64,000 bases of DNA from an archaeon. GTDB lineage: Archaea; Nanobdellota; Nanobdellia; Woesearchaeales; SM23-78. The stretch covers positions 134,155 through 198,154 of the forward strand of contig JAZDMG010000007.1 of NCBI GenBank assembly GCA_043801165.1, in the 5' to 3' direction. The position numbers and the translations under genes are program-made. This document shows positions 11,956 to 50,761 of this stretch, one piece after another (within the stretch, counting starts at the first letter, position 1; every line of letters begins with the position of its first letter). The notes below the pieces were generated by a model. It searched no databases and was not told the DNA's origin. It was given only the letters and a program-made list of their open reading frames with translations.

Positions 11956-11998
11956 ACAGGGAATTTGAGACTGATTACTATGAGACTGAATCAAATTC
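11956..11998 (+). repeat. Hairpin repeat family, copy M
   Basis: acaggGAATTTGA-(22 nt)-TCAAATTC. It lies between the convergent ends of ppdK and the RHH gene, and its 3' arm overlaps the last codons of 11978..12214. Confidence 0.7.
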
Positions 11999-12214
11999 TT
12001 TTCGCATGGATTGCTCTATCCTTGCGCTCATGTTATAGCCTTTCTCCCTGCATAGCTTCTGGAATCTCGAAGCCACAGCCTTGTCAACTGTGAAGTTCAT
12101 CCTGGTCTTGGTCCTGATCTTCTTGGTCTTCTCGAACTCCATCAAAGTCTCGAACATGGTCTTGTCGTTCTTGGCTATATCTTTCGCTATCCTAATGAAC
12201 TTGCTTGATTGCAT
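11978..12214 (-). CDS. RHH-type antitoxin partner of Doc
   Basis: 78 aa. The C-terminal MNFTVDKAVASRFQKLCREKGYNMSARIEQSMRKE fits strand-helix-helix. It overlaps the Doc gene by 23 nt. Confidence 0.6.
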   Translation of the reverse strand: MQSSKFIRIAKDIAKNDKTMFETLMEFEKTKKIRTKTRMNFTVDKAVASRFQKLCREKGYNMSARIEQSMRKEFDSVS

Positions 12215-12542
12215 CCTTGATCAACTCCTCTATCCTGTTTATGCTTGTTATGTTCTTGAGGATTATGCTCTTTATCAGCTTGACTATCCGGTCGTCATAG
12301 GTCTTGCATCCCTCATACTCGGCGTAGGCTTTTATCAGCAACGCGGTGGTCCTCTTGTTGCCTTCCTCAAAGACATGGTCTAATAGTATAGCCCTTGTGA
12401 GCCAGGCCAATGCCTTGGTCCAGTTCTCGGTCTTCTTGGCATAGCCTAGTGCGAACTCAAGGCTTGCCTCGTTGTGAAGCGTTCCTGTGTCGAACTCCTG
12501 GTTCAGGCATACGATATCCTTCTTTGAAAGCACAAATCTCAT
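12192..12542 (-). CDS. Fic/Doc family toxin
   Basis: HVFEEGNKRTTALL matches the Fic/Doc motif H.F.(D/E)GN.R. Confidence 0.8.
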   Translation of the reverse strand: MRFVLSKKDIVCLNQEFDTGTLHNEASLEFALGYAKKTENWTKALAWLTRAILLDHVFEEGNKRTTALLIKAYAEYEGCKTYDDRIVKLIKSIILKNITSINRIEELIKDAIKQVH

Positions 12543-12547
12543 TTTAA

Positions 12548-12575
12548 ATACACATTTGTGTGTATAAATGTGTAT
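12548..12575. promoter_or_regulatory. Operator-like repeats in the Doc operon promoter
   Basis: ATACACA (12548-12554) and TGTGTAT (12559-12565) form an inverted repeat. A direct copy TGTGTAT sits at 12569-12575, interleaved with A/T boxes. Confidence 0.35.
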
Positions 12576-12633
12576 TGATATTTAAATGTTATTGATTTTC
12601 CGAGACGATGTCTCGGAATTGTTGGATTACACC

Positions 12634-12668
12634 TATTTAAATAGGCTGCGCCGAGCTGTCCAGTGAGC
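12634..12668 (+). promoter_or_regulatory. Conserved TATA-linked core module, copy A
   Basis: tatttaaataggctgcgccgagctgtccagtgagc. Confidence 0.6.
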
Positions 12669-12769
12669 ATATGCCTTATCAGGGGATCTTATGGATGGCA
12701 AATACATTTATAAGCAGATACAGGCTCTCAGGATCATAAACAGTGTAATGATGTTTATGCAGGTGCAAC

Positions 12770-13159
12770 ATGCGAGAATTTAATAAAACAGGCAGTTTTG
12801 GAAGAAGAGACTCTGATGGTCCTAAAAGAAGAAGCTACGGCAGGTCAGAGAGCCGCGATTTTGACAGGCCCAGCAGGCCTGAAGGAAGATTTGACGGGCC
12901 CAGAAGCAGGAATACAGGGCTTGAGCTGCATAAAGCAGTCTGTGCTAAATGCGGCGAGAGCTGCGAAGTCCCATTCAGGCCATCAAATAACAAGCCTGTC
13001 TATTGCCGGGAATGCTTCAAAAAGAACGAAGGCAGCAGATTTGAGCCAAGAGAAAAGCCCAATGACCGCCCAGAAGCCAGAGCCAACCCTTCCCCTGATG
13101 AATTTGAGAAGATCAACAGGAAGCTAGACAGGATAATGAAATCATTGAATATCGAATGA
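12770..13159 (+). CDS. CxxC-x17-CxxC zinc-ribbon protein with Arg/Asp/Gly-rich N-terminus
   Basis: CAKC-(17 aa)-CREC counted by hand. The flanks are low-complexity and basic. Confidence 0.7.
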   Translation: MREFNKTGSFGRRDSDGPKRRSYGRSESRDFDRPSRPEGRFDGPRSRNTGLELHKAVCAKCGESCEVPFRPSNNKPVYCRECFKKNEGSRFEPREKPNDRPEARANPSPDEFEKINRKLDRIMKSLNIE

Positions 13160-13185
13160 TCATTCTTTTTAATGTTATTTCTATG

Positions 13186-13227
13186 CCAGGGAATTTGAAT
13201 TGAGTTCTTACGAAGCGCGTCAAATTC
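13186..13227 (+). repeat. Hairpin repeat family, copy L
   Basis: ccaggGAATTTGA-(21 nt)-TCAAATTC, between convergent gene ends. Confidence 0.7.
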
Positions 13228-13230
13228 AGA

Positions 13231-13455
13231 TCAAAACTTCTTTCCAGTCTCGGACTTTATCTTTTTATTGAAGTCCTCGACGTCCTGCTTCGTGAGCTTG
13301 CTCTTCTCCAGAAGCTCTTTTTTATTTCGTCCTAATTCTATGAATAGGAGCTCTGGCGCCAAAGGCTCAATGCTTTCTGAGAACAATAGCTCTGCAGACT
13401 TTCCTCTTGCTAGGAGCGCTGCGAACAATACATTGGCATCGACGACCACTTTCAT
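13231..13455 (-). CDS. Truncated PIN-like toxin (74 aa)
   Basis: MKVVVDANVLFAALL is a PIN N-terminal acidic motif. The ORF stops well short of a full PIN domain. The upstream gene abuts it as TGA-ATG. Confidence 0.5.
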   Translation of the reverse strand: MKVVVDANVLFAALLARGKSAELLFSESIEPLAPELLFIELGRNKKELLEKSKLTKQDVEDFNKKIKSETGKKF

Positions 13456-13695
13456 TCATTTCAGACCTGGAAATTTCTTCTTGTATTGCCTGTGCATAGA
13501 AGAAGAGAGCTTGTCGGCCATCTTTTTTGCGTCTGCTTCAGTCAATTTGCTCTTAGACACTATTGACTTGAACATGGAAAGCGCCGTGATCTTCTCCCGT
13601 ATCGCCTCCCTTGCTACAGCAGACCAATTTATGTATTCCAACTCATCCATCTCCTTCTTCAAATCCTCAGGCACTGACAACGTTATTGTCGGCAT
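13456..13695 (-). CDS. Putative antitoxin
   Basis: 79 aa. MPTITLSVPEDLKKEMDEL...WSAVAREAIREKI is RHH/VapB-like. It lies directly upstream of the PIN-like ORF. Confidence 0.55.
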   Translation of the reverse strand: MPTITLSVPEDLKKEMDELEYINWSAVAREAIREKITALSMFKSIVSKSKLTEADAKKMADKLSSSMHRQYKKKFPGLK

Positions 13696-13786
13696 AGTCT
13701 TACCTCCGCATTCAAATATTTAAAACTGTGTAAACAGCGTAAATATTTAAATGTTTTGGCTCGATAATAATTACTGATAAGCTTAG

Positions 13787-13837
13787 CTTAAATAGGCTGC
13801 GTCAGGCCGTCCAGTGAGACCTGTGGTCATTTAGGGG
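13787..13837 (+). promoter_or_regulatory. Conserved TATA-linked module, copy B (long form, followed by a collapsed hairpin remnant)
   Basis: cttaaataggctgcgtcaggccgtccagtgagacctgtggtcatttagggg, followed by gaattgtcggaag, which matches the hairpin flanks with the hairpin interior missing. Confidence 0.6.
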
Positions 13838-13923
13838 AATTGTCGGAAGAATTTCGGAATCAAGATGGTCTTTGCGAAAATCGTTGGCCTGATTATATGA
13901 AGATGCTCTCTTATCTATGATGC

Positions 13924-14337
13924 ATGACCCGATACTATATCGATGCCTGCGTCTGGAGAGACTACTTCGAGGATAGGCGTGACAATCTCAGGCCATTGGG
14001 AGAATGGGCATTCCAGCTGCTGAGGAAGATAGTCGATGAAGAGGATGTTGTTGTTATCAGCGATAACCTGCTCAACGAGTTCAGGAAATATTATGATGAG
14101 GAAAAGATCATCAGGATGCTCAGCATAATTCCGGAAGAGCTAATCCTCAGGGTGAATGATGAAAGCCGGCAGCTGCTAGAAGCCAGGGAGCTGAGCAAGA
14201 AGTTCAGCATACACCGGTCAGATGCGTTGCATCTGGCCCTGGCATTGCTTAATGATGCGGTGCTAGTGACTAGAGATGCTCATTTCAAGGAGCTGAAGAA
14301 TGAGTATGATATCTGTGCGCCGGAAGAACTAATCTAA
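13924..14337 (+). CDS. PIN-domain toxin (VapC-like)
   Basis: MTRYYIDACVWRDYFED... with late-domain acidic residues (SDALHLALA, TRDAHF). Paralogue of 25976..26401. Confidence 0.75.
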   Translation: MTRYYIDACVWRDYFEDRRDNLRPLGEWAFQLLRKIVDEEDVVVISDNLLNEFRKYYDEEKIIRMLSIIPEELILRVNDESRQLLEARELSKKFSIHRSDALHLALALLNDAVLVTRDAHFKELKNEYDICAPEELI

Positions 14338-14592
14338 TTTGACCCCTAACCTTTTGGCTGTCTCGTTAAAGACCATCTCTCCGACTTCTTCCTCACTGAG
14401 CTTGCATTTGCTCTTCAAAGTGCCCTTTGCCGCGGCAAGCTTTGCGATGATCTCATCCTTTTCCAAACGGGAGAGCCTTGACCTTATGGCGTCCCTTATG
14501 AACTCGGTGCGAGTGCTGAAATTATGCTTCTTTAAGACTGAGTCGATGTTCTTTAGCATCTGCTCATCAAGCTTCAGGGAGATAACTTCCAT
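14329..14592 (-). CDS. CopG/RHH-family protein (antitoxin-like), convergent with the PIN gene
   Basis: MEVISLKLDEQMLKNIDSVLKKHNFSTRTEFIRDAIRSRL. ATG 14592 is preferred over the track start 14613. Paralogue of 25717..25998. Confidence 0.7.
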   Translation of the reverse strand: MEVISLKLDEQMLKNIDSVLKKHNFSTRTEFIRDAIRSRLSRLEKDEIIAKLAAAKGTLKSKCKLSEEEVGEMVFNETAKRLGVKLD

Positions 14593-14593
14593 G

Positions 14594-14620
14594 GTAATAC
14601 TTAGTATATACAAAGTAATA
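14594..14620 (-). promoter_or_regulatory. Operator-like TATTAC repeats
   Basis: gtaata occurs at 14594-14599 and 14615-14620 (21-nt spacing) flanking the palindrome gtatatac, between TATA-like tttaaatat and the ATG. Confidence 0.35.
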
Positions 14621-14667
14621 TTTAAAGGTTGCGGCGGGGAAGACGGAAGGATTGCGTACCGAGAATC

Positions 14668-15426
14668 CTACAATTTCATCCTGTTGAAAGCCCAGGTCCC
14701 TACCGCTATCAGCACTAGGTCAAAGCCGAGGATGATTAATAAGTTTGAGATGAATGACATTGATGATGCGTGGATTATTATGCTTCTAAGGCCATCGACT
14801 GCATAGGTGGCTGGGTTTATGTGTGTGAGGATCTGCATCCAGTGGGGAAGCTTGTCCAATGGATAAAGAGCTCCTGACAACAGGAATAATGGGTATACTG
14901 CGAAGCTTGCCACCAGGCCGAATCCTTCTGGGCTCTCCATGAAAGAGCCGATTATTAATCCAAGGCTGACAAGGCCAATCGCTAATACGAATAGCATTAC
15001 TATTGTCAATAGGAAGCTGGCTACTGTGAACGGTATGCCAAGGAATATGCCTATCACCATGAGGATTCCTGCTTGGACTAAAGAGTCTGTCATGCAGCCG
15101 AGGACTTTTCCGAAAAAGATTGTGGTTCTTGAGAGAGGAGTGACCAGCACTCCTTTGAGGAAGTCGACTTTCTTATCCCAGACAAGATAGGCTCCGTTGA
15201 ACAATGAGCTGAAGATTATGGTCATGGCAAGGAAGCCTGGGAATATGAAATATTCATAGTTGCCTGGCATGGTGGTGATAGATCCTACTCCTTTGCCGAA
15301 GATGAAGTACCAGAACAGCGGGAGGAATAGGGCTGAAATGATCCTGCTTTTCTCTCTTAGGAATACCTTTATCTCCCTGTACCATATGGCGTATATTCCC
15401 TTTGCGATCTTTCTTGCTTTGCTCAT
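14668..15426 (-). CDS. ABC-2 type transporter permease
   Basis: 252 aa with six hydrophobic segments. It overlaps the upstream ATPase gene by 4 nt. Confidence 0.8.
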   Translation of the reverse strand: MSKARKIAKGIYAIWYREIKVFLREKSRIISALFLPLFWYFIFGKGVGSITTMPGNYEYFIFPGFLAMTIIFSSLFNGAYLVWDKKVDFLKGVLVTPLSRTTIFFGKVLGCMTDSLVQAGILMVIGIFLGIPFTVASFLLTIVMLFVLAIGLVSLGLIIGSFMESPEGFGLVASFAVYPLFLLSGALYPLDKLPHWMQILTHINPATYAVDGLRSIIIHASSMSFISNLLIILGFDLVLIAVGTWAFNRMKL

Positions 15427-16388
15427 TTTCCTGCGTTGGTATATGTCCTTAACTGCTCTATCAAGCCGCCTTCCTGCTCCCTTATCTCATGGCCTGTGTA
15501 TTTCAAGAAGACGTCGTTGAGGTCTGGAGAATGGATGTCAACTGAATCCACCTCACCTGCTACTTGTAATAGCTTTTGAAGGTTCTTCGCTGAATTTTCC
15601 ACTGTTAGCTGTAAAGAGTTCTCTGACTTAATGATCTTTTTTACGAATGGTAATGATTTCAATTGGTCTATCCTGAGATTTTTTCCTTTGAGGATGATTA
15701 CGTCTCCCTTCATGGCTTTCTTTAGGTTCTCAGGAGAGTCCAAGGCGATGATTTTTCCATGGTCGATTATGGCTATCCTGTCGCACAAGTTTTCTGCCTC
15801 TTCCATGTAATGGGTTGTCAATATTATCGTCATGTTCATGGTCTTTGCCAATAGCTCAATGTATTTCCAGATGCGATTTCTTGTTTGAGGGTCTAATCCT
15901 AGGGTTGGCTCGTCTAGGAAGAGGATTTCTGGCTGGTGCAATAGTCCTCTTGCTATCTCCATCCTGCGCCTCATACCGCCTGAATACTTCTTGACTATAT
16001 CGTTCTTCCTTGGCTTGAGGTCGACTAGCTCTAAGACTTCGTCTATCTTCTTGTCTATGAGCTTTAACGGGATGTCATACATCAATGCGTGGAGCTTAAG
16101 ATTCTCGTAGCCGGTTAGCAATTCATCTGAACTAGGGTCCTGGAAGACCATACCGACAGACTCACGGACCTTGGCAGGGTCTTTGGTGACGTCGAAGTTG
16201 TTTACTGAGGCTTTGCCTGAAGTTGGCTTCAAGAGAGTTGAGAGCATCATCAAGGTTGTTGTCTTTCCAGCTCCGTTAGGGCCCAGAAGACCGAAGATCT
16301 CGCCCTTCTTGATGCTGAAGCTGATCTTATTCACAGCTGTTAATTTATCGTACTTCTTAGTGAGATTAACGATACGGATAGCGTCCAT
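15423..16388 (-). CDS. ABC transporter ATP-binding protein
   Basis: Walker A GPNGAGKTT, signature SGGMRRR, Walker B ILFLDEP. ATG 16388 (MDAIRIVNL) is preferred, because the track start 16457 runs into repeat copy D. Confidence 0.9.
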   Translation of the reverse strand: MDAIRIVNLTKKYDKLTAVNKISFSIKKGEIFGLLGPNGAGKTTTLMMLSTLLKPTSGKASVNNFDVTKDPAKVRESVGMVFQDPSSDELLTGYENLKLHALMYDIPLKLIDKKIDEVLELVDLKPRKNDIVKKYSGGMRRRMEIARGLLHQPEILFLDEPTLGLDPQTRNRIWKYIELLAKTMNMTIILTTHYMEEAENLCDRIAIIDHGKIIALDSPENLKKAMKGDVIILKGKNLRIDQLKSLPFVKKIIKSENSLQLTVENSAKNLQKLLQVAGEVDSVDIHSPDLNDVFLKYTGHEIREQEGGLIEQLRTYTNAGK

Positions 16389-16443
16389 TGAGCTGAGAAA
16401 GAACGAAGGGGTTTTTAAAGGTATTGAAGCTGAAATCAGTTGA

Positions 16444-16487
16444 CAGGGCTTTCGCACATCAGCTCTTACGAGGAAGAAGGCGAAAGC
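16444..16487 (+). repeat. Hairpin repeat family, copy D
   Basis: caggGCTTTCGC-(24 nt)-GCGAAAGC. Confidence 0.7.
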
Positions 16488-16499
16488 TGTAGGATTAGA

Positions 16500-17507
16500 T
16501 TATTCCAGCAGCCTATTGAGGCTCTGCCTCAGCTCATCCTTATCTGGCAGATAAAGCTTGTATTTTGAGGCGAATATCTGCTTATTATCCTCTGGCAAAG
16601 TGTATCTCACAACAGACTCTTTCTTGTCTGCGCACAGGAGGATTCCCACGGTCGGATTTTCCTCTTTTGATCTCAGTTCCCGGTCATAATAGTTCACATA
16701 CATCTGCATCTGCCCCAGGTCCTTATGGGTGAGCTTTCCGACCTTCAGGTCTATCAGCACAAAACATCTCAAAATCCGGTTATAGAACACCAAATCCACG
16801 AAAAAATGCTCTGAGTCCAAAGTCATCCTCTGCTGCCTTCCGACAAACATGAACCCTCTCCCAAGCTCAAGCAGGAACTTCTGCAGATGATCAATCAGCT
16901 TCTGCTCCAGTTCGCTCTCTGAGTATTTGCTTGATTCCTCAAGACCTAGGAATTCAAGGACATAAGGGTCTTTTATCAGGTCACCGGCCTTTTCTGTGAC
17001 CCGCCCCTTTTTCGAAAGCTCCAAGACCCCTTTCTTGTCCTTGCTCAAAGCGATCCTATGGAATAACATTGAGTTTATCTGCCTATCCAGCTCCCTGACA
17101 GACCACCTATCCCGGATGCATTGCTTTTCATAAAATGACCTCTCTAGGCTATCATCTAACCTTAAAAACAGCATGTAATGGCTCCAGCTCAATTCGTCAG
17201 ACACTGTCTGCCGATTCGGATAATTCAGATAGAACCTGCGCATATCAAGGATGTTTCTTATGCTAAAACCTTTACCATGGCGCAAGCTTAAATCCTTAGA
17301 TAAGTTGGCTAGAAGCTGAGAGCCATACTCTGCCCGCTCTTTGCCACCCTGCTCGTACTCTATGATTATTTTTCCTATTTCCCAATAGGTCCTGACAAGG
17401 ATGGAGTTGACTGCAGTGGCTGCCTGCTTCCTGCCATCCTCCAGCAAGACGCCTATGGAATCGACTAATGAACCATAACCCGTGCTCTTTACCGGAGGCT
17501 GTTTCAT
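16500..17507 (-). CDS. DUF1016/YhcG-like PD-(D/E)xK nuclease family protein
   Basis: FVDLVFYNRILRCFVLIDLKVGKLTHKDLGQMQMYVNYY resembles the YhcG nuclease core. ATG 17507 lies 25 nt from the TATA at 17532-17538. Confidence 0.7.
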   Translation of the reverse strand: MKQPPVKSTGYGSLVDSIGVLLEDGRKQAATAVNSILVRTYWEIGKIIIEYEQGGKERAEYGSQLLANLSKDLSLRHGKGFSIRNILDMRRFYLNYPNRQTVSDELSWSHYMLFLRLDDSLERSFYEKQCIRDRWSVRELDRQINSMLFHRIALSKDKKGVLELSKKGRVTEKAGDLIKDPYVLEFLGLEESSKYSESELEQKLIDHLQKFLLELGRGFMFVGRQQRMTLDSEHFFVDLVFYNRILRCFVLIDLKVGKLTHKDLGQMQMYVNYYDRELRSKEENPTVGILLCADKKESVVRYTLPEDNKQIFASKYKLYLPDKDELRQSLNRLLE

Positions 17508-17530
17508 GATCAATTGACTAGAAGGATGCG

Positions 17531-17581
17531 CTTAAATAGGCTGCGCCAGGCTGACTAGTGAGACCTGTGGTTATTTACGGG
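17531..17581 (+). promoter_or_regulatory. Conserved TATA-linked module, copy C (long form)
   Basis: cttaaataggctgcgccaggctgactagtgagacctgtggttatttacggg. Confidence 0.6.
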
Positions 17582-17643
17582 ACTTAGGGAAGACCGAAGC
17601 CACAGCGAAGATCGCAGTGGCGATGGCTAACTGAACCTTTCGG

Positions 17644-17688
17644 CAGGGCTTTCGCAGTTGATTCTCACGAAGAGGGCGAAAGCGGAAG
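17644..17688 (+). repeat. Hairpin repeat family, copy C
   Basis: caggGCTTTCGC-(20 nt)-GCGAAAGCggaag, 62 nt downstream of module copy C. Confidence 0.7.
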
Positions 17689-17764
17689 GATTCACAGATT
17701 CTTGGATATTATTCCGAAAAATCCTTGGCCGGTTATATTAATGAGCTTCTGCCCGCAGTTCTTT

Positions 17765-18304
17765 ATGCTTGATGAGCGAAGAGTAAAGGAAGCGAAAAGC
17801 AGCATGGCTGCTTATTTGGCTGACGGCCTCATAAAGAAAAATATTTTCAAGCAGATCATCTTTGACACTTACCTGCGGAATCACAGGGAATCTTTGCGGC
17901 TGGCTGCCTATGTCCATGAAAAAAAGCTTTCTTGCCTCTGGACTGTTGTCATAAGCTATTATTCTATGTTCTACATGGCTAACGCAGTGCTTTATGCTTT
18001 CGGCTACAAAGTAGGTGATTCGCGGGCGCACAGGGTGACTGCTGACGCGCTGATATGCTTTGTCCGTGAAAAGCTCAGGGGTTCGCTTTTGGAATGCTAT
18101 GAAGAAGCCATGGAAGAAGCTTTGGAGATGGCTGGCGCAAGGGCTGATGAGATCATATCCTCATTTGACAAGGAGCGGAAGAAGCGCTCTGAGTTCCAGT
18201 ATGAGACCTCTGAAGACCTGAAGGAGAGCAAGGCCTCTACTTCCCTCCATAGGGCTGAGGAGTTCGCAGTTGAGATGAACCGGCTGCTGAAGAGTTCTTT
18301 ATGA
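17765..18304 (+). CDS. HEPN-domain protein
   Basis: A helical protein. YYSMFYMANAVLYAFGYKVGDSRAHRVTADAL is HEPN-like. ATG 17765 follows the A/T box ttatatta (17733-17740). The track start at TTG 17702 overlaps the repeat. Confidence 0.55.
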   Translation: MLDERRVKEAKSSMAAYLADGLIKKNIFKQIIFDTYLRNHRESLRLAAYVHEKKLSCLWTVVISYYSMFYMANAVLYAFGYKVGDSRAHRVTADALICFVREKLRGSLLECYEEAMEEALEMAGARADEIISSFDKERKKRSEFQYETSEDLKESKASTSLHRAEEFAVEMNRLLKSSL

Positions 18305-18358
18305 AAACATTTATATATTATTACTAATATGTAATAGTATTATTATATAAAGGTAATA

Positions 18359-18925
18359 ATGATGGGTCCCCTGCTGAAGATATTAAGGTTCTTTATCGAG
18401 AATAAAGGACAGGCCAGCATCAACGCGTTGGCTGGAAAGCTAGGGATGAACTACAGGATAGCCTATTATGGGGTGAAAGAGCTTGAGAAAGAAGGGTTGA
18501 TCGCTGTCAAAAGGCTTGGGAACTCAAACCAATGCAGCCTAAGCTACGGGTTCAACGACAAGGTCTTGCTGGTTGAGAATATGAGGAAAGAAGAATTATT
18601 GAAGAATACTGACATAAGCATAATCAATGACCAGCTGGAAGATGTCGAAAATCCGCTCTTCATATGCCTGGTGTTCGGATCCTATGCTTCTTCTAAGCAG
18701 AAGAAGAATTCTGACATAGACATCTGCGTGATAGCAGAAGAGAAAACTTCGGAAGAAGTGAAAAGAGCCATAAGAGGCCATCCTGTCAAGACGCACATAC
18801 TGGCTTTCACGCCGCGAGAGTTCAAGGCGATGATGAAAACAACAGAAGAAAACGTAGGAAAAGAGATCAAAAGGATGAATGTGATACTCAACGGAACAGA
18901 AGAATACTACCGGATGAACAGGTGA
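18359..18925 (+). CDS. wHTH-fused minimal nucleotidyltransferase (MNT), partner of HEPN
   Basis: LVFGSYASSKQKKNSDIDICV is the GS-x(n)-DxD nucleotidyltransferase motif. The N-terminal part is winged-helix-like. Confidence 0.7.
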   Translation: MMGPLLKILRFFIENKGQASINALAGKLGMNYRIAYYGVKELEKEGLIAVKRLGNSNQCSLSYGFNDKVLLVENMRKEELLKNTDISIINDQLEDVENPLFICLVFGSYASSKQKKNSDIDICVIAEEKTSEEVKRAIRGHPVKTHILAFTPREFKAMMKTTEENVGKEIKRMNVILNGTEEYYRMNR

Positions 18926-19820
18926 GGAGGAGGAGCGAGCCTTCAATCAATCCCAACAGCGATACAGGCTCGGAGGAAGCCCATAGCGGTCCAAAGGGTG
19001 CGTCCAGAATCTCTTGAAAAAATAAAATTATGTTGTGGGCTATTGCTCTGCAATAGGCCTCTGCGCGCTGCGCAGAGATCTTGTGGCTAGCGATGCTAGC
19101 CCCAAATTTAGTTTTTATCGCTTTGAAAACAGATTCAACCATTTCTCTGCGATAATATCTTCTATGATGAACATATTTTTGGTTTTCTCTACGTAAAGTA
19201 TGATTTTTATTTCTACTTCTGCCTTTATTTCGCATGGGAATGCAAGCAGTTATTCCTTTGCTTGCGCAATATTCATGCAACCAATTAGCGTCATATCCTT
19301 TATCTGCCACAAGCCATTTGGCTTGTGGACTTCGTTTGAGCAAGTATTTTGCATCTCGAATATCGTGAGCTTTCTTTGCTCTTAGACGCAAAGCTAAGAT
19401 TTTCTTGGTTTTGGTATCGACGACAATGCTCAGTTTAAGGGGTATTTCCACCGGATAAGGTCTGTCGATGCGTCGATAATAGTATGGGCTGGGCAAAGAA
19501 CGACTCATGCCAGTGCCATCAATTGCCAAGATGTAGCTTTTTTTGTCTGCAGTAGCAGACAAAACTCTTTGCCAAAGATTTAACGGTATGCGATTCATAG
19601 CATACCACAAACCAGATTTGCTGGCGCACTTAACTCCAAGACCGCGAAGCATTCTAGTTATCCGACGATAACCTTGCTTGCATTCTTGTTTTAGAACAAG
19701 TGCTAAAAGATGATGTTTTAGCTCATATTTCTTTGGTCCAAAATGGTGTAGCCATCTTGGCATGCCTAAGCGTCTCAGGAGACGCTTAAATTTATTAATT
19801 AGTCTTTCTTCTTTAGCCAT
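18888..19820 (-). CDS. DDE transposase
   Basis: AIDGTG, VADKGYD and REMVESVFKAIK fit a DDE triad pattern. The reading frame has no stop inside the IS and runs through the left IR into flanking DNA. Confidence 0.8.
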   Translation of the reverse strand: MAKEERLINKFKRLLRRLGMPRWLHHFGPKKYELKHHLLALVLKQECKQGYRRITRMLRGLGVKCASKSGLWYAMNRIPLNLWQRVLSATADKKSYILAIDGTGMSRSLPSPYYYRRIDRPYPVEIPLKLSIVVDTKTKKILALRLRAKKAHDIRDAKYLLKRSPQAKWLVADKGYDANWLHEYCASKGITACIPMRNKGRSRNKNHTLRRENQKYVHHRRYYRREMVESVFKAIKTKFGASIASHKISAQRAEAYCRAIAHNIILFFQEILDAPFGPLWASSEPVSLLGLIEGSLLLLTCSSGSILLFR

Positions 19821-19902
19821 TGGGCGAACACCTCAGATGTTTGCCCCCCAGCTAGCCTAACGGCTAGCTGGCTTATTAAATTTTTAGATTCTGGACGCAC
19901 CC
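18996..19902 (-). mobile_element. IS element (IS4/IS5-like DDE transposase) with 17-bp terminal inverted repeats and 9-bp target duplication
   Basis: GGGTGCGTCCAGAATCT at 18996-19012 is the reverse complement of 19886-19902. CGGTCCAAA flanks both ends (18987-18995 and 19903-19911). Confidence 0.85.
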
Positions 19903-19947
19903 CGGTCCAAAGGAAAATTTATAAACTCTTTAACTTTAACACAATGC

Positions 19948-20439
19948 GTGGGATTAAATTCAATCATCAAATTTAAGAAAAAAACACCGGATTGGTGGAT
20001 TTTAACTCTATTGCCTCTTCTTCTCATACTTTCTGTTTCTGTGATAAGTTATTTTACTAATGGGATTTACACCGCATTATCCGCGTTTATCGAACAGATC
20101 TTAACGTTTAGTTTTGTCTTAAGTAGCACAGATCTGGCATTACGTTCAAAAATAGTAAAAGAAGATAAGCGTTCGAGATTACCTCCAATAATACCATTGA
20201 TTCTGGCTTTTATAATATTTATTATTTATGTTGCGTTAATTGATACTATTACGGCTCGATTTTCAAAAGACGTTATTTACTGTGTATTCGTATTAATAAC
20301 AATTATTATTGGTTATGCATCAATTATCTTGTATAACAACAATCCTTACAGTGATCCTTTTGAGCCGAATCCTGTAGAAGAGAAAATTGGTCAAGAAGAA
20401 GCAGACATGAAAAGATTTGAATTTGGAGATAAACAATGA
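19948..20439 (+). CDS. Small four-helix membrane protein, unknown function
   Basis: 163 aa, GTG start, four hydrophobic segments. Its stop overlaps the start of the next gene (ATGA at 20436-20439). Confidence 0.55.
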   Translation: MGLNSIIKFKKKTPDWWILTLLPLLLILSVSVISYFTNGIYTALSAFIEQILTFSFVLSSTDLALRSKIVKEDKRSRLPPIIPLILAFIIFIIYVALIDTITARFSKDVIYCVFVLITIIIGYASIILYNNNPYSDPFEPNPVEEKIGQEEADMKRFEFGDKQ

Positions 20440-21548
20440 ATTCGAATGAAGAGAAGTGGTTAGAAATATCTGTAATGGAGATTGAACAGCCTATTGGGAA
20501 ATTCTATATCGGAAAAGCTTTGGCCAACGATGTTACCAGAATCTGTTCTGCTGATAAAAGACAAAAAGTTATAAATGACGAGCTAGATGCTTACATAGGA
20601 ATTCAAAGACAACTAAATGAGGCTAGAAAAAAAGAAATTGAAAAATTTGTTTTAACCGAAGATGCTAGTTTTCCTAGTTCTGTTGTTCTTGCTGTTAAAG
20701 AAGGGGCATACGAATACGACAATGAGAGAAAAATTATTAAGATTAAAGAAGATAGAAAATCATGCAACATACTCGATGGTCAACACAGATTATCCGGATT
20801 TCCTGCAAACACCGAGAATAAATTTGAGCTTATCCTAACTATCTTTCCGGAACTTGATTTAGAATATCAAAGTTATCTTTTCTCAGTTATTAATACTCGC
20901 AGCACTAGAATTAATCCATCTTTAGCTCAAGATTTATATGCTTTCTCAAAAGTCGACACGCCTGAACGATTAGCTCACAGAATCGCTAGAGTTTTTAATA
21001 AAACTGAAGAAAATCCTTGGTTCATGAGATTGAAACTTCTTGGTATGAGCGACGGTAATAAAAATGCTATTTTATCACAAAGTACATTTACTAAATATAT
21101 TGTTGAATTGATATCAAGAAAAGAGGACACATATCAAATCAGAGATGTTCTGAAGAGAAACAACAATAAGAGAAAAGCTCTTAAAGACTTCAAATCTCAT
21201 GGTCCGCTTTGGGATAAATACATTAACGGTGAAGATAAATATATTTATGATTTATTAAAATGTTATTTTATTGCGGCAAAGCAAAAATTCCAAGATAACT
21301 GGGGAGATCATAACAGCATCATTACAAAAACAACAGGTTACGCTGCATTAATGAATGTATTGAAATATTTATTGAAAAGGGAATTGCCAAACGAACCCGA
21401 TGTTGGTTATTTCAAAAAGTATTTTGATAATATCCCCGACCCGATTATTGAGAGATTAGACAGTGAGCATTATACGCCGGGTCAAGTAGGAGAAAGTGAT
21501 CTTCAAAAAGATATTTTAAAAGGAATGGGATTTGAGAAAGGTAATTGA
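20436..21548 (+). CDS. DGQHR-domain (DndB-like, ParB/Srx-fold) protein
   Basis: NILDGQHRLSGF, with D of DGQHR at codon 114 (nt 20775), and the upstream GIQRQLNEARKKEI motif. Confidence 0.8.
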   Translation: MNSNEEKWLEISVMEIEQPIGKFYIGKALANDVTRICSADKRQKVINDELDAYIGIQRQLNEARKKEIEKFVLTEDASFPSSVVLAVKEGAYEYDNERKIIKIKEDRKSCNILDGQHRLSGFPANTENKFELILTIFPELDLEYQSYLFSVINTRSTRINPSLAQDLYAFSKVDTPERLAHRIARVFNKTEENPWFMRLKLLGMSDGNKNAILSQSTFTKYIVELISRKEDTYQIRDVLKRNNNKRKALKDFKSHGPLWDKYINGEDKYIYDLLKCYFIAAKQKFQDNWGDHNSIITKTTGYAALMNVLKYLLKRELPNEPDVGYFKKYFDNIPDPIIERLDSEHYTPGQVGESDLQKDILKGMGFEKGN

Positions 21549-21581
21549 TTTTAATCTCTTTTCTGATTAGTTGAAAGGAGC

Positions 21582-22364
21582 TTATTTTATATGCGCGTTC
21601 ATCTCTTCAAATCTTTGTTTAGTTAAGTTTAGGAATTCTTTTTCTTTCTCGATTCCAATATATTTTCTTCCTAGCGAGCACGCAACAACGCCAGTCGTTC
21701 CCGAGCCATTAAAGGGGTCTAGAATATAGTCTCCTTCATTAGAGCTGGATGCGATTATTCTTTTCAACAATTCAATCGGCTTCTGAGTTGGATGTGCTCC
21801 GCATTTCTTCTCGCTCATAGGAGTTAAAGGAATATGCCAAATGCTTCGCATTTGCTTTCCTTTCGGGCTTATCTTATCATCCCATTCTTTCATTTCTTTG
21901 TAGTGGAAGATGTGCTTCGCGTCCTTTTCTTTCCTGGCCCAGATTATCGTTTCGTGAGTATGAGCAAAGCAACGACAAGCGAGATTTGGAGGAGCATTGG
22001 GTTTATACCAAGTAATATCATTCAGAATGTGAAAACCCAACGATTGTAAAGCATAGCCCACCTGATAAATGTTATGCGGCGTTCCAGAAATCCAGATCGT
22101 TCCGTTCGGTTTCAAAACACGTCGACACTCCTTTATCCAGCTATAGGTAAATTCAAAATCCTTCTCGAATCCTTTTGATTTATCCCAATCTCCTTTATCT
22201 ACGCAAACCACTTTGCCAGCTTTGCAAGAAATGCCACCGTTTGAGAGGTTATAAGGAGGGTCGGCGAATATTGTGGTTATTGATTCACTTTTTATTTTTG
22301 GAAGCAGCTCTAAACAATCGCCATGCAAGAGAGTAATGTCTTCATCCTTATGATAAACAGTCAT
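21582..22364 (-). CDS. Beta-class DNA methyltransferase, probably N6-adenine
   Basis: N-terminal IFADPPYNL catalytic motif and C-terminal ILDPFNGSGTTGV SAM motif, in beta-class order. Confidence 0.85.
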   Translation of the reverse strand: MTVYHKDEDITLLHGDCLELLPKIKSESITTIFADPPYNLSNGGISCKAGKVVCVDKGDWDKSKGFEKDFEFTYSWIKECRRVLKPNGTIWISGTPHNIYQVGYALQSLGFHILNDITWYKPNAPPNLACRCFAHTHETIIWARKEKDAKHIFHYKEMKEWDDKISPKGKQMRSIWHIPLTPMSEKKCGAHPTQKPIELLKRIIASSSNEGDYILDPFNGSGTTGVVACSLGRKYIGIEKEKEFLNLTKQRFEEMNAHIK

Positions 22365-22385
22365 TCTCTATCAATTCATGACCTT

Positions 22386-22419
22386 GTTTATATTCTTTGC
22401 GTCGAAATGTCCAGTGCTA
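22386..22419 (+). promoter_or_regulatory. Conserved TATA-linked core module (short copy)
   Basis: gtttatattctttgcgtcgaaatgtccagtgcta. Confidence 0.6.
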
Positions 22420-22489
22420 TTATACAAAAAACGGAATATTCTCGTAAAAAGCGAAAATATTATTAACTTTGAGGCATAACATTTTATTA

Positions 22490-23125
22490 ATGACTGAAAA
22501 CTACACAGAAGGCATGAACTATCAAAAGATGCTGGATGTAATAAAGAAGTTAGAATTCGATAAAAAGAAAACCATCTATAAAGAGGTAAATGTTGAAGTG
22601 TATCTAATCAGACCTTCAGAATTGCCCAAACGATTAAAAAACAAATATGATGCTAGTAAAAATTTCCAAATCTGGTTAAAAGAAGATGAAAGAGAGTTCA
22701 AACCGAACCATTTAAGATTAATGATTGATTTGAATCTTAGAGCAAGATCAAGACCTGACTTGAAAAAAGACCTTCTGAAAGCATTCGATAACATATTCTA
22801 CGGAAATGACCCTCTTAAAGAAGTTCAGAAATTATCCTTGGAGAAATTCGAGCATTATCTGAATTCGATCAAAGTAATCGCTGTACTGATGCAGCTCTTT
22901 TTGATTGAACAGGATTTCAATTACATAAAAGACAGTAAATTTGAACCCAAAACGCTATTTTTTCAAGGATGGATTAGAGAATTCATAGACAGTCCAAAAG
23001 AAATCGATAATATGTGCATGAGCGTTTGCAATGGACAACCGCCAAAGATACAATATACTGATAAAGAAAATGGAAAACATAAGAAATACGAAAAAGATCT
23101 AAAACCATTGTGGTATTTGAATTAA
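22490..23125 (+). CDS. Hypothetical protein between two methyltransferase genes (candidate restriction endonuclease; unproven)
   Basis: 211 aa from ATG 22490. An A/T box at 22456-22466 lies 24 nt upstream. No nuclease motif could be assigned with confidence; the call is positional only. Confidence 0.5.
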   Translation: MTENYTEGMNYQKMLDVIKKLEFDKKKTIYKEVNVEVYLIRPSELPKRLKNKYDASKNFQIWLKEDEREFKPNHLRLMIDLNLRARSRPDLKKDLLKAFDNIFYGNDPLKEVQKLSLEKFEHYLNSIKVIAVLMQLFLIEQDFNYIKDSKFEPKTLFFQGWIREFIDSPKEIDNMCMSVCNGQPPKIQYTDKENGKHKKYEKDLKPLWYLN

Positions 23126-23955
23126 TAATTAGTTACTACAACCTCGTTGATTTCTCCACGACCTTCTGCTTTAGAATTAATCATTCTTCTTGCTTTGACA
23201 GTGTGAATTTTAAAATCAGCGTAAATTTCTTTTATTAGTTTTGTATCGCTGTTGCTTTCCATACAGAAGCATCCTTTTTCTGATAGTTTTCTGAAGATTT
23301 CAGCCAGTTTTTTCTGGTCTTTTTCTACAAAATTGTCTTTTGTATATGTCGTGAAGCTCGGTTTCGCATCCAAAGGATGATAAGGCGGGTCAAAATATAC
23401 AAAATCCCCTTCTTTAGCCAAATCAGCAATCTTTTCAAAAGACATTACCTTGATCGTTACGTTTTTTAGAAGTTCAGCGATTCTTCTTAGTTTATCTTCT
23501 TGGACGACATCCGGATTCTTGTAGTCACCCATAGGAACGTTAAATTGATTCTTAGAATTTACTCTATACAATCCATTAAAACAGGTTCGATTTAGATAAA
23601 TAAATCTGGCGGCTCTTTCCAATAAAGGCAAATCGTTTGGGCTGACACTTCTTATTTCATAATAATATTCTTTTCCGTCAGCCAAATGATATTCTTTGTG
23701 TTGCTTTAGCTCTACGATAAGCCGTTCTACATCGGTTTTGATAACATTGAACGCATTAATAAGCTCCTCGTTAGTATCTGAGAGAAAAACCTCTTTTGGT
23801 TTTAAATTTTGAATAACGAAGAAGGCCACAGCTCCGCTTCCTACAAACGGCTCAAAGTATCTATTAAATTTCTTTGGAAAGAGAGGCTTAAACTGCTCGA
23901 TAAGCTGCTGCTTCCCACCAGCCCACTTTACAAAACGCGGAATATCCTCACCCAT
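23122..23955 (-). CDS. Dam-type (alpha-class, D12) N6-adenine DNA methyltransferase
   Basis: The N-terminal WAGGK...EPFVGSGAV SAM motif precedes YFDPPY. Confidence 0.85.
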   Translation of the reverse strand: MGEDIPRFVKWAGGKQQLIEQFKPLFPKKFNRYFEPFVGSGAVAFFVIQNLKPKEVFLSDTNEELINAFNVIKTDVERLIVELKQHKEYHLADGKEYYYEIRSVSPNDLPLLERAARFIYLNRTCFNGLYRVNSKNQFNVPMGDYKNPDVVQEDKLRRIAELLKNVTIKVMSFEKIADLAKEGDFVYFDPPYHPLDAKPSFTTYTKDNFVEKDQKKLAEIFRKLSEKGCFCMESNSDTKLIKEIYADFKIHTVKARRMINSKAEGRGEINEVVVTNY

Positions 23956-24017
23956 ATTCGAAGAATAAGCGGGTTTTATTTAAATATCTTACACTATTGC
24001 AGAGTCAGATAGTATCT

Positions 24018-47889: not shown

Positions 47890-48102
47890 ATGGCAGGAAA
47901 AGATGACAAGGGAAAGAAACCAGCAGCAGGCGGAAAGCCGAAGAAGAAGGCAGCCAGCAAAGTAGGCAAGATATATGAAGTCTCAGGCAATTCTCTCAAG
48001 AGGAAGAACAAGAGCTGCCCAAAGTGCGGGACAGGGACATTCATGGCCAACCACAAGGACCGAGTGACCTGCGGCAAGTGCGGGTATACTGAGAAAAAGT
48101 AA
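47890..48102 (+). CDS. rps27ae: Ribosomal protein S27ae
   Basis: [24 protein letters not shown] zinc ribbon with a basic N-terminus. Confidence 0.9.
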
Positions 48103-48147
48103 ACTTTTTAATTTTTCTAATCATAACGGACAAATTTAATCAATGTT

Positions 48148-48981
48148 CTATCGCCAATTGGATAAAATTTCGTGTTCATGGAGATAAACTCTTTTTGCTT
48201 GATTTGGCACAAGATAATCATCCAAGATATTTCTAATTGTTGGGATTTTACAAATTAGAGCTAACTCAAGCGGAAGCCTTGGCTTGGGGCTGCTAAACAG
48301 TAAATGAATATTTTTAGCTGTGATTTTCTCATTTAACAAAGGAAGAGTCAGCCGCTCCTCTTTTGGAAGCGAATCGATTTGAATACCGCTTCTATAAAAC
48401 GCACGTTCTGCTAAGACTCCAACACCAACTGTAGCTTCCGTAATAACTTCCGTAATAAAATCGCACAATAAAGCTATTGAAGCCGCCCCAATTTTTCCCA
48501 ATAATGTTGTAAACTCGTACCTTTTAAAACTTTCAAAGCTATATTTTTTTCTTTTATATTTGTTGCAATCTGAAATATTCTTTCTTATATTATTTTTATG
48601 AGTATATGTTGCTTCTTCGCAGAAATCTTTTCCGAGATATTTTTGCATAGCATAGCTCTCTTTGAACAGTGCTTTTGCAACCAAAGGATGGCTTTCCTTT
48701 AAGATAAAAGCAGCCCTAGGCCAACCATTATTAAAATAATAAGGGAAATCTTTTTTATTATTTCTTCCAGAATCGAATTCATCTCCAGCACAAGATGACG
48801 AGATAGTATTTCTTTTGTAGGGATGAAATTCATCTCCAGCACAAGCTGACAAGACCGCGGCAGTATAATGATCGCCTTCTTCATAGAATTTATCAGATAA
48901 GGAAATAATTGCACGAATCTGCTTATCAAAGCTTTTTTCATTAATTATTATCCTCTCTTCTAATTTTAATTCCGGTTCCAT
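48148..48981 (-). CDS. Hypothetical protein (second gene of an AT-rich two-gene cassette)
   Basis: 277 aa with no motif recognised. The internal near-repeat CAGDEF is encoded by a duplicated DNA segment around 48776 and 48824. Confidence 0.5.
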   Translation of the reverse strand: MEPELKLEERIIINEKSFDKQIRAIISLSDKFYEEGDHYTAAVLSACAGDEFHPYKRNTISSSCAGDEFDSGRNNKKDFPYYFNNGWPRAAFILKESHPLVAKALFKESYAMQKYLGKDFCEEATYTHKNNIRKNISDCNKYKRKKYSFESFKRYEFTTLLGKIGAASIALLCDFITEVITEATVGVGVLAERAFYRSGIQIDSLPKEERLTLPLLNEKITAKNIHLLFSSPKPRLPLELALICKIPTIRNILDDYLVPNQAKRVYLHEHEILSNWR

Positions 48982-48997
48982 TTTTATTCCCTCATTA

Positions 48998-49570
48998 TTA
49001 ATTTAACTCCTTTGCAATCCTTTCAAGTATACTTTTCTCTTCTCTTTGAATACATTCAAGCCTTTCTATTAAACCACTTGTCTTTGTTCGCAAATCTGTA
49101 TATTTCATAATCGCATCGTAAATATTATTGGAAACATCTCTCGGGTTTATTGAATTTAGGCTATTCAAGCGATATAATGCGTTATAAGAACCTTTATCTT
49201 TACAAGGACTGCCGCTCATCCAACGATAATCAAAAGATCTCTCCCAAGATCTCTCCCTGCTATTAAAAACAGAATCTACTACCGCTTTCTGTAAGATTCT
49301 TTCAATCTCAGTGTTTCCGTAAAAATGAATAGTATACGCAAAAAAATAATCACCATCTGTAATTTCGAAGGCACTGGCATTTAGTTCCACATATGCTGAA
49401 AATTTGGAAACACTCTCAGGACTCCTCACAAGATATCTTTCCGTACCATCATTAATAGCCTGCATAGGAATTCCTTTTTCAGATAATCCATTTTTCACAG
49501 CATCCACCATATCGTCACATGGTTTTCTTGATTTTATGATTGCTCCTCTTTTGAATAATTTCATTTTCAT
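48998..49570 (-). CDS. Hypothetical protein (first gene of an AT-rich two-gene cassette)
   Basis: 190 aa with no motif recognised. It lies 16 nt upstream of the next ORF. Confidence 0.5.
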   Translation of the reverse strand: MKMKLFKRGAIIKSRKPCDDMVDAVKNGLSEKGIPMQAINDGTERYLVRSPESVSKFSAYVELNASAFEITDGDYFFAYTIHFYGNTEIERILQKAVVDSVFNSRERSWERSFDYRWMSGSPCKDKGSYNALYRLNSLNSINPRDVSNNIYDAIMKYTDLRTKTSGLIERLECIQREEKSILERIAKELN

Positions 49571-49705
49571 CCCTCCCGAAAACTCATCTAATCATAATCA
49601 CACAATCACTAATAAGTAGCACTAAGTCATCATATATCAATATTCTTACCATATTATTGTTCAAAACGCAATATTTATAAGTATTAATGTATTATTAGAC
49701 TAAAA

Positions 49706-50668
49706 ATGAGCACTCTCGACTTAAAAGACAAGAAAATACTGTATGAACTAGATTTGAATGCTCGGCAGAGCAATTCCCAGATAGCAAAGAAGGTGAGGCT
49801 TAACAAGAACACAGTCAACTACAAGATAAAACGGCTTGAGGAAAATAAGGTAATCCTCAGCTATTACGCAGTCATAGACAGCACCAAGCTAGGCTATTTC
49901 AGCTTCAGGGTCTACTTAAATTTCTTCAACACAGTCCCCATCCAAGAGAAAGAAATGATTGACTGGCTGAAAGCAAAAGGAGAAATCAGTGTCATTGGGG
50001 TGATAGAAACAATCTATGACCTTGTATTCATGTTCATGGCAAAAAACGTCTACGAATTCGACGATTTCTGGCTGGAGTTCAAAAAGAGATTCAGAAAATA
50101 CTTCTGGAATGAAAAAGTGGATGTATTCACTAAAGTCAGCCATTTCAAGAGAAAATACCTGCTTGGAAGCGAGAAGTACGAAAAATACGAGGCCATTGGC
50201 GATAACATTCCTGCAAAATACGACGAGCTAGACATAAAAATCCTCATGATGCTGACAGAAAACGCTAGAATGCCCTTAATAAACATATCCAAAAAACTAA
50301 AAGCATCACCGAGAACAATAGCCTTCAGGATGAAGCAGCTTGAAAAGAAAAGAATAATCTTGGGTTACCGAGTAAACATCAACCTGCAATCAATAGGCTA
50401 CGAGTATTATAAGATAAACATGACCCTGAATGATTTTGAAAAATACGACTCATTAATGAACTTCTCAAAAAACCACCCGAACATAATATATATAGACCGG
50501 ACTCTATCAGATCTGGATTTTGAGATTGATGTAGGAATCAAAGGAAAACCAGAACTACTAGAACTAATCAACGAAATAAAATTAAAATTCAACATCAGAA
50601 AAGTCGAAATGTACTCCTACAAAGAATACATAAAATTAGACTCGATGCCTAACTTAGTGCATAAATGA
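49706..50668 (+). CDS. Tandem-duplicated Lrp/AsnC-family transcription regulator
   Basis: Two HTH_AsnC units (LDLKDKKILYEL...SNSQIAKKV and LDIKILMMLTEN...INISKKL), each followed by an effector-domain-like segment. Confidence 0.75.
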   Translation: MSTLDLKDKKILYELDLNARQSNSQIAKKVRLNKNTVNYKIKRLEENKVILSYYAVIDSTKLGYFSFRVYLNFFNTVPIQEKEMIDWLKAKGEISVIGVIETIYDLVFMFMAKNVYEFDDFWLEFKKRFRKYFWNEKVDVFTKVSHFKRKYLLGSEKYEKYEAIGDNIPAKYDELDIKILMMLTENARMPLINISKKLKASPRTIAFRMKQLEKKRIILGYRVNINLQSIGYEYYKINMTLNDFEKYDSLMNFSKNHPNIIYIDRTLSDLDFEIDVGIKGKPELLELINEIKLKFNIRKVEMYSYKEYIKLDSMPNLVHK

Positions 50669-50719
50669 TTTAACTTTTTTCAGGCGACGCTCTGACGAGC
50701 GCCGGAAGAAACATTGTTC

Positions 50720-50761
50720 GATTTTGCCTTCGGCTCGGAAGATTCTGACGCAAAATCCCTG
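50720..50761 (-). repeat. Hairpin repeat family, copy K (the only copy outside the 12-30 kb region)
   Basis: GATTTTGCC-(21 nt)-GCAAAATCcctg, between the convergent gene ends of the Lrp gene and pncB. Confidence 0.65.

Follow-up and report, generated by a model that had tools for sequence, protein, structure and literature searches.

What keeps a family of short hairpins together in one small region of an archaeal genome, with sequences that vary and pairing that is maintained? The stretch analyzed here, called the window, is 64,000 nt of the 236,897-bp contig JAZDMG010000007.1 (assembly GCA_043801165.1, positions 134,155–198,154 of the forward strand). Its host is a Woesearchaeota-like DPANN archaeon, and the homologs of its pyruvate phosphate dikinase are labelled Woesearchaeota, Pacearchaeota or Nanoarchaeota. 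An earlier note on this DNA had described ten copies of a roughly 45-nt hairpin and proposed that they are selected for their fold and may mark cassette boundaries.

The hairpins cluster at the joints of a variable island of defence and toxin-antitoxin genes, read inward from both island edges, and lie, with a second repeat, at many of the breakpoints between this genome and its closest relative. Our reading, to which we give about an even chance, is that they are DNA-level, structure-dependent recombination sites at the joints of small defence and toxin-antitoxin modules.

Results

A hairpin family with a conserved fold

In one common orientation the consensus runs from a head C-A/G-G-G through an 8–9 bp stem, a loop and the complementary stem to a C and a tail close to GGAAGAT. 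The loops are 17–24 nt long and usually carry GAAG at their end. The elements measured span 44–51 nt, typically ~47 nt. An invariant G:C closing pair lengthens the helix to its 8–9 bp, and all intact copies form one unbroken helix with no bulges.

All ten copies listed in the earlier note were found within about 2 nt of its coordinates (Table 1). In a covariance model built from them, the copies score 44–60 bits and everything else in the window scores 13.5 bits or less, these lower matches being reverse strands of family hairpins or noise. Since the model scores nothing else above 13.5 bits, the 64-kb window holds exactly ten copies. A simpler scan for GGG, a perfect 7-bp stem and an 8–40 nt loop finds 13 sites in the window (shuffled mean 3.1, maximum 8), ten of which are the family.

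The six stem pairs given before are correct and their complementarity is kept throughout: all 80 cells of the eight core pairs in the ten copies are Watson–Crick, and five stem pairs carry changes on both sides (14 cells). Pairing and covariation exceed two controls. None of 500 shuffles reached the observed pairing or covariation score, and sliding the 3′ partner by 1–3 columns lowers the pairing to 21–58%.

Nine further copies come from the closest relative described below. Over the 19 copies, 93% of the cells are paired with the optional ninth pair included, and double changes occupy 24 cells. There are two T.G wobbles, both on the same strand, no A.C pairs and one degenerate copy. The copies fall into six stem types that differ at five positions and are kept paired.

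The double changes beyond the controls thus bear out the proposed selection on the fold, within the limit set by only six stem types and mosaic copies. The spacing between the stem arms varies by 7 nt, which favours a folded single strand over a fixed double-stranded site for a protein dimer. Taken together, the sequences suggest that selection acts on a folded single strand, be it RNA or DNA. The likeness of the D and I loops was also borne out, as both contain ACATCAG(C/T)TCT(T/G)ACGAGGAAGAAG.

One island, two inward-facing arms

Nine of the ten copies lie inside an island bounded by two convergent core genes, those for pyruvate phosphate dikinase (9281–11920, +) and glucokinase (30344–31438, −). 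This agrees with the former placement of nine copies in a region rich in toxin-antitoxin and restriction-modification genes. The family was at that time called dispersed; its copies are clustered instead.

The island is built of modules of 1–3 genes each. Its toxin-antitoxin pairs are Fic/DOC-like, PIN_2, PIN/RHH (twice), MazE/PIN_3 and ParDE-like. It also carries two DNA methylases, a DndB/DpdB-like protein, a radical-SAM enzyme, TspO, an ABC transporter and one insertion sequence (IS). PADLOC matches are a YhcG nuclease (PDC-S02), a Bro-N protein (PDC-S13) and a nucleotidyltransferase pair (PDC-M05).

Every left-arm copy (M, L, D and C) lies on the + strand; every right-arm copy (E, F, H, I and J) lies on the − strand, as does K outside the island. 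As the earlier note had seen, these orientations do not follow the neighbouring genes. In the window and the relative alike, the hairpins of each arm read into the island, away from the 3′ end of the core gene that borders it, and the two arms point towards each other. Within an arm they share a single orientation at intervals of 1–3.3 kb, among genes that lie on both strands and are preceded by TATA boxes.

The independence from local gene orientation is plainest at D and F, both antisense to the two genes beside them. At F this follows from the cold-shock-domain gene being on the + strand (25391–25630); a longer − strand open reading frame (ORF) at 25357–25614 is probably not a gene.

A second repeat, m2, of ~75 nt consists of a TATA-like TTTAAATA followed by GGCTGCGYCRRGCYGTCCAGTGAGACCTGTGGTYATTTACGG and has six copies in the window. 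In each arm its strand is that of the hairpins, and the two repeats mostly alternate. Five units consist of a hairpin, then one or more genes on the opposite strand, then m2, and in three composites (C, E and J) m2 stands directly upstream of the hairpin. A decayed hairpin may follow m2 copy b at ~13833–13863. Weak partial matches to the 5′ half of m2 (TATA to GTCCAGTG) occur at 4594–4627 and 22383–22417, so this half may be a common promoter layout in the organism.

The joints also hold a purine-rich GGAGAAGCGGAAGG-like stretch, an GATTCTTGCTTTGAAATC motif and a second TATA region, and the intercassette regions are mosaics of short motifs. The GGAGAAGCGGAAGG-like motif, often followed by ATTKGCG, is seen at 14640–14670, 25654–25700 and 29671–29690 of the window and at 13955–13975 of L054. 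It recurs between m2 and hairpins and at several synteny breakpoints, and some of its occurrences resemble decayed hairpins.

Breakpoints and mosaic hairpins in the closest relative

The sole close relative available for comparison is ERZ27248074 k141_1225695, in two overlapping pieces, 44 kb in all, with 94% identity to the window in the dikinase and 87% in the glucokinase. Its island occupies the corresponding position, is 20 kb long and holds four m2 copies together with nine hairpins; the left arm accounts for three of the hairpins (all +) and the right arm for six (all −). The two islands (~38 kb) hold 18 of the 19 hairpins, and the ~70 kb of flanks hold one.

The islands differ module by module. 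The relative is without the unit of M, the Fic/DOC pair and m2 (window 11922–12694), without the PIN_2 pair with its m2, and without the ABC operon (window 14651–16425), which in the window directly adjoins the 5′ side of D's CAGGG. In turn, the relative carries additional modules, among them a type I restriction system, a 179-aa ORF and RadC. The Bro-N and MazE/PIN_3 modules stand in reversed order in the two genomes. In the relative, a unit of the 179-aa ORF, Bro-N and m2 lies between two hairpins with identical 41-nt bodies.

We counted a breakpoint as associated when, in one genome or both, the end of a synteny block lay at most 15 nt from a hairpin or an m2 copy. This holds for 10 of the 18 block ends in the island. 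Hairpins, m2 and the 15-nt margin cover ~6–7% of each island, for which ~2 hits are expected, and our own binomial estimate of this enrichment is of the order of 1e-5. One shared block stops exactly at 13227 in L and another ends at 17593 in m2 copy c, and blocks begin at 12695 in m2 copy a and at 26489 within m2 copy g. In the one genome that could be compared, gains, losses and reorderings thus break at hairpins, as expected if these are the cassette boundaries proposed earlier.

Orthologous hairpins differ by swapped blocks, far more than their flanks, which are 79–95% identical. In the relative, the D ortholog takes its head and 5′ loop from C and its 3′ loop from D, the L ortholog its 5′ half from L and its 3′ half from M, and the F ortholog combines the stems and tail of F with an E-like loop. 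At the I site, between TspO and MazE, both flanks are conserved around a stem-loop of a different type (AATCCGCC), and the J ortholog has a different loop. Such block swaps point to frequent recombination or gene conversion among the copies. A notion that the head stays with the upstream flank was withdrawn as ambiguous, since several copies have CGGGG heads.

Past the glucokinase stop codon, the relative has a solo hairpin element of ~88 nt with no gene attached, which is absent in the window. This insertion or deletion shows neither target-site duplication nor terminal inverted repeats.

A young family at a hot spot for accessory genes

The family was not found in GTDB, taken at one genome per species, with the pattern CAGGGAATYYGC..GCRRATTCKG; the 53 single matches in unrelated bacteria score 20–32 bits at one per locus, as chance predicts. 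Two scans of viral contigs gave chance-level matches only, and a scan of the JGI metagenomes for the D-type loop returned only a second assembly of the same relative. More distant relatives with dikinase or glucokinase 73–86% identical (L055–L057 and L080–L083) have no hairpins by the covariance model, and scanning L055, L057 and L080 for other perfect hairpins revealed no alternative family. With copies only in the window organism and its closest relative, the family is young and confined to one lineage.

Two observations belong beside these scans. Three viral contigs share an identical hairpin CAGGGAATTTGCG...GGCAAATTCGGA of 25.6 bits (L061 1522–1576, L062 1873–1927 and L067 10448–10502), once per contig, and the total number of matches fits chance. 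Just after the dikinase gene of L081 (85% identity), positions 4990–5030 read AAGCAATTTGAATCAATTTCTTACGAG, which resembles the 5′ arm and loop of L and its ortholog and is without the 3′ arm. This may be a decayed ancestral copy, or chance.

The site itself is more widely used. Two more distant relatives have no island: the genes for tRNA U5-methyltransferase, SdpI and SMC come within ~0.5 kb after the dikinase gene. Two other relatives have different islands there, one of ~9 kb. Hence the dikinase site is a hot spot for accessory genes in the clade.

Features of the window

Table 1. Island, hairpins and m2 repeats in window coordinates. Scores are covariance-model bits for hairpins and nhmmer E values for m2.
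Feature	Coordinates	Strand	Score	Stem or sequence	Setting
Variable island	11921–30343				~18.4 kb; Pfam and PADLOC annotation
Hairpin M	11954–12005	+	44.0 bits	AATTTGA/TCAAATT	35 nt past dikinase stop codon; left island edge
Hairpin L	13184–13234	+	50.7 bits	AATTTGA	after zinc-finger gene 12770–13159
Hairpin D	16441–16494	+	57.8 bits	CTTTCGC	between ABC-transporter operon 5′ end and YhcG nuclease gene 3′ end
Hairpin C	17641–17690	+	53.9 bits	CTTTCGC	~60 nt downstream of m2 copy; upstream of ORF 17702–18304
Hairpin E	24014–24069	−	59.9 bits	AATTCGCC	directly downstream of m2 copy; upstream of Dam methylase gene (23122–23955, −)
Hairpin F	25274–25325	−	47.0 bits	AATCCGCC	between radical-SAM gene 3′ end and cold-shock-domain gene 5′ end, both +
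Hairpin H	27474–27523	−	44.4 bits	AATCCGCC	between convergent 3′ ends of PIN_3 toxin and Bro-N genes
Hairpin I	28454–28507	−	57.5 bits	AATTTGC; D-type loop	between TspO 3′ end and MazE/PIN_3 pair 5′ end
Hairpin J	29621–29670	−	48.1 bits	AATCCGCC	directly downstream of m2 copy; upstream of ParD/ParE-like pair
Hairpin K	50713–50764	−	50.7 bits	ATTTTGC	sole window copy outside island; between convergent 3′ ends of helix-turn-helix regulator and nicotinate phosphoribosyltransferase genes
m2 copy a	12627–12700	+	8e-17	TTTAAATA + GGCTGCGYCRRGCYGTCCAGTGAG...	right end of unit opened by M
m2 copy b	13777–13851	+	1e-20		
m2 copy c	17522–17595	+	8e-20		upstream of C
m2 copy e	24062–24140	−	9e-19		abuts E
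m2 copy g	26468–26547	−	6e-19		between Bro-N gene 5′ end and PIN gene
m2 copy j	29665–29741	−	2e-17		abuts J

K lies in a stretch of low GC (35.5% at 48–50 kb), and the protein database has no homolog of the neighbouring phosphoribosyltransferase with more than 45% identity, the window's own copy aside. On these two grounds, 48000–52300 is probably a second variable region.

The head of F is duplicated at 25326–25360 (GACGGGG aagacgactcatacga CAGGG), and the relative's site has a single head. The duplication may have arisen by slippage, or it may be what an insertion left behind on its excision. Upstream of H, the 60 nt at 27549–27608 are 82% identical to 28506–28565, the TspO 3′ end upstream of I, and it appears from this match that the TspO 3′ fragment was duplicated together with the hairpin junction.

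Each arm has one PIN toxin gene that converges on, and overlaps, a gene for an RHH antitoxin, at 13924–14613 in the + arm and 25717–26437 in the − arm. The two modules are diverged mirror-image paralogs (38 nt at 92% and 169 nt at 67%) and m2 precedes each. A recent inverted duplication of a whole arm was considered and rejected, as the arms share only the repeats and this one diverged module.

The island centre has an IS4/IS5-type DDE transposase gene at 18888–19820. The adjoining 20000–24000, with the DndB/DpdB-like gene and both DNA methylase genes, has a GC content of 34–35% versus ~45% for the genome. In the relative a type I restriction-modification system takes the place of this centre. 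To the right of the island, a ParE toxin gene (34082–34342) and an InsA-like zinc-ribbon ORF (35127–35624) stand among core genes with no hairpins nearby.

Discussion

Proposed recombination sites at module joints

The proposed site would have four parts: the purine-rich asymmetric head C(A/G)GG, the variable but paired 8–9 bp stem, the 17–24 nt loop and the C-GGAAGAT tail. One DNA strand would fold into the hairpin. A putative recombinase or nuclease, encoded outside the window, would recognise the fold together with the head and tail, and modules would be inserted, excised or exchanged at or beside the hairpin in a fixed orientation. Such a mechanism would yield direct hairpin repeats in each arm, module-wise differences between relatives and mosaic hairpins.

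Recombination sites fit the data best because they account at once for a fold free in sequence, asymmetric flanks, confinement to the islands, arm polarity, breakpoints, identical repeats and mosaics. The fold, the confinement, the polarity within each arm, the breakpoints at hairpins and the mosaicism are observations. What we infer from them is the action of a dedicated enzyme on the fold, single-stranded DNA as the molecule that folds, and the place of the crossover.

Several points weigh against this reading. Eight of the 18 breakpoints are away from any repeat, and the support comes from only one comparison genome. The breakpoints of the mosaic hairpins are scattered (5′ of the head, within the loops and after the tail), so there is no single fixed crossover point. 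The covariation is in part recombination among a few variants rather than many independent substitutions; with only six stem types and with mosaic copies, the 19 copies do not amount to 19 independent tests. The mirrored polarity of the arms could stem from an old inverted duplication, to judge from the diverged PIN/RHH-m2 module in both.

Further, no recombinase, integrase or Y1 transposase was found in the 64-kb window or the 44 kb of the relative, where the sole enzyme candidates are the IS4/IS5-type DDE transposase and the InsA-like ORF. The same patterns could arise if the 45-nt repeats underwent homologous recombination or gene conversion with one another. About eight of the ten copies could be transcribed in sense, which leaves room for an RNA role. 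Our confidence stops midway for three of these reasons: no enzyme in view, no single crossover position, and a pattern that homologous recombination could mimic.

Integron attC sites

Integron attC sites and CALINs, the attC clusters without an integrase, have been reported in Archaea; known integron hosts include DPANN archaea (Nanoarchaeota in GTDB terms), and the archaeal integrons so far were found with standard attC models and have the bacterial fold (PMC9668308). The hairpins are attC-like in being conserved in structure and variable in sequence, at a length near the ~50–130 nt of attC. Within each arm they repeat in one orientation along the chromosome, with short, toxin-antitoxin-rich cassettes in between; the cassette content varies between close relatives, and in attC arrays too the integrase is often not nearby.

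However, the differences are substantial. The stem here is continuous, with neither extrahelical bases nor an unpaired central spacer, and the conserved parts are the unpaired CAGG head and the GGAAGAT tail. The genes lie in both orientations with their own promoters, two arrays face inward, m2 alternates with the hairpins, and the mosaic breakpoints fall at several positions. The boxes R″ (RYYYAAC) and R′ (GTTRRRY) form no pair 45–150 nt apart in the window (~6 in shuffles), and both are absent from the 40 nt around every hairpin, whichever strand is read. Canonical attC identity was rejected, given the missing R″/R′ boxes and the stem without extrahelical bases.

Tagged palindromes and other mobile repeats

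The hairpins might instead be selfish tagged palindromes, similar to repetitive extragenic palindromic (REP) sequences or miniature inverted-repeat transposable elements (MITEs). A HUH (Y1, RAYT-like) transposase encoded elsewhere would copy them, they would accumulate where the island tolerates insertion, and cassettes would be rearranged incidentally, through homologous recombination among the copies. We consider this unlikely.

REP and BIME palindromes come with RAYT transposases (PMC3733652, PMC2817692). Much of the present family resembles them: a conserved tag (CAGG) and a short conserved tail at opposite ends, a location mostly downstream of ORFs, and T.G stem pairs on one strand (PMC3733652). 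REP families are also lineage-specific, sit at rearrangement hot spots and form mosaics with other small motifs. The single-lineage distribution, the mosaic copies and the gene-less solo element after the relative's glucokinase all suit such an origin.

Yet a REP palindrome measures 20–40 bp and bears a GTAG or CGTC tag, whereas the hairpins, in an archaeal DPANN host, measure 44–51 nt and bear C(A/G)GG, and their 17–24 nt loop is too large for REPs. REPs spread in hundreds of copies genome-wide, and here, in the part of each genome that was available, 18 of 19 copies lie in the islands. There are no head-to-head or tail-to-tail dimers in the REPIN or BIME style and no RAYT/Y1 gene in the ~108 kb examined. 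Identity with usual REPs was rejected, as the tag, size and genomic spread differ and no RAYT gene is in the sequence examined.

The solo element, with neither target-site duplication nor terminal inverted repeats at its insertion or deletion, also speaks against a selfish palindrome, and MITE identity was rejected on these two features. The window's only IS has no similarity to the hairpins. The copies are thus not fragments of a MITE or IS terminal repeat, an origin that the earlier note had named as fatal to its proposal.

The subterminal hairpins of IS200/IS605 elements are strand-specific and have a short conserved sequence at the 5′ foot, beside the point of cleavage and insertion. Strand-specific hairpins with such a foot sequence, a fixed insertion orientation and no target duplication are common to them and the present family (see also PMC6006769). 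They differ in that no TnpA/TnpB gene is present here, the units end in a hairpin on one side and m2 on the other, and the cargo is ordinary defence and toxin-antitoxin genes.

The Neisseria dRS3 repeats and "minimal mobile elements" are another parallel; there, cassettes are probably exchanged when transformed DNA recombines homologously through its flanks. There too, small repeats mark strain-variable cassette sites between conserved genes, and the intergenic regions are mosaics of short repeats. The organisms and the sequences are different.

A possible RNA function, or junction leftovers

A function in RNA is equally unlikely. The hairpin would stabilise or help to process transcript 3′ ends or, where it follows an m2 promoter, serve as a 5′ leader or small RNA; it would travel with the modules, and rearrangement would occur via repeat homology. 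About eight of the ten copies do closely follow the 3′ end of a gene on their own strand (M, L, H, I and K) or come shortly after a TATA-containing m2 (C, E and J). The standard non-Watson–Crick stem pairs are only T.G wobbles on the sense strand, and the tail of J makes a second small hairpin, GGAAGAAG...CTTCTTCC, after it.

Against an RNA function, D and F are antisense to both neighbours and the polarity tracks the island arm instead of the genes. Whole loops and stem-loops are swapped between orthologs, unlike the normal evolution of a conserved RNA. The m2-hairpin composites show no covariation beyond the main stem, and a small RNA spanning m2 and the hairpin was rejected on that ground.

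A run of five or more T is the usual archaeal termination signal. None of the ten copies is followed by one, M and I having only TTTT, and a canonical terminator role was rejected. Rfam 15 gave no match in the whole window at gathering thresholds and nothing relevant at 11.5–30.5 kb with E ≤ 1. With tRNA and tmRNA searches also empty, a known RNA gene was rejected. So was an attachment site made of a tRNA fragment (T-arm-like GAATCCGCC), as there are no tRNAs and the stem and loop sizes do not fit. In line with the earlier impression of an undescribed archaeal repeat, the family has no Rfam match and no canonical attC boxes.

It is very improbable that the hairpins are functionless junction leftovers, copied with duplicated modules and with palindrome arms passively corrected against each other: the PIN/RHH-m2 module is duplicated across the arms and a 60-nt TspO 3′ fragment upstream of H, but the flanking genes are unrelated (dikinase, zinc-finger protein, YhcG, TspO, radical-SAM enzyme, Bro-N and phosphoribosyltransferase), the homology among copies ends at head and tail, and all six stem types are perfectly paired.

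Implications

By comparison with the known systems, the element looks like a new structured cassette-junction repeat, analogous to attC or REP and a member of neither. More tentatively, with a probability well short of that for the recombination sites themselves, the island may be a new integron-like gene-capture platform of DPANN archaea. It would use non-attC hairpins and a recombinase or HUH nuclease not yet tied to cassette arrays, with the m2 promoter driving expression.

It is poorly understood how DPANN archaea, host-dependent organisms with tiny genomes, gain and replace their defence genes. If the hairpins do mark exact module joints while lacking the signatures of attC sites, REPs and IS ends, they would point to a second independent solution to the problem of cassette arrays. 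The covariance model would then be a handle for finding the enzyme, and metagenomic arrays that standard integron finders miss. If the hairpins are only hot spots of homologous recombination, they would still be a clear case of small structured repeats organising a defence island.

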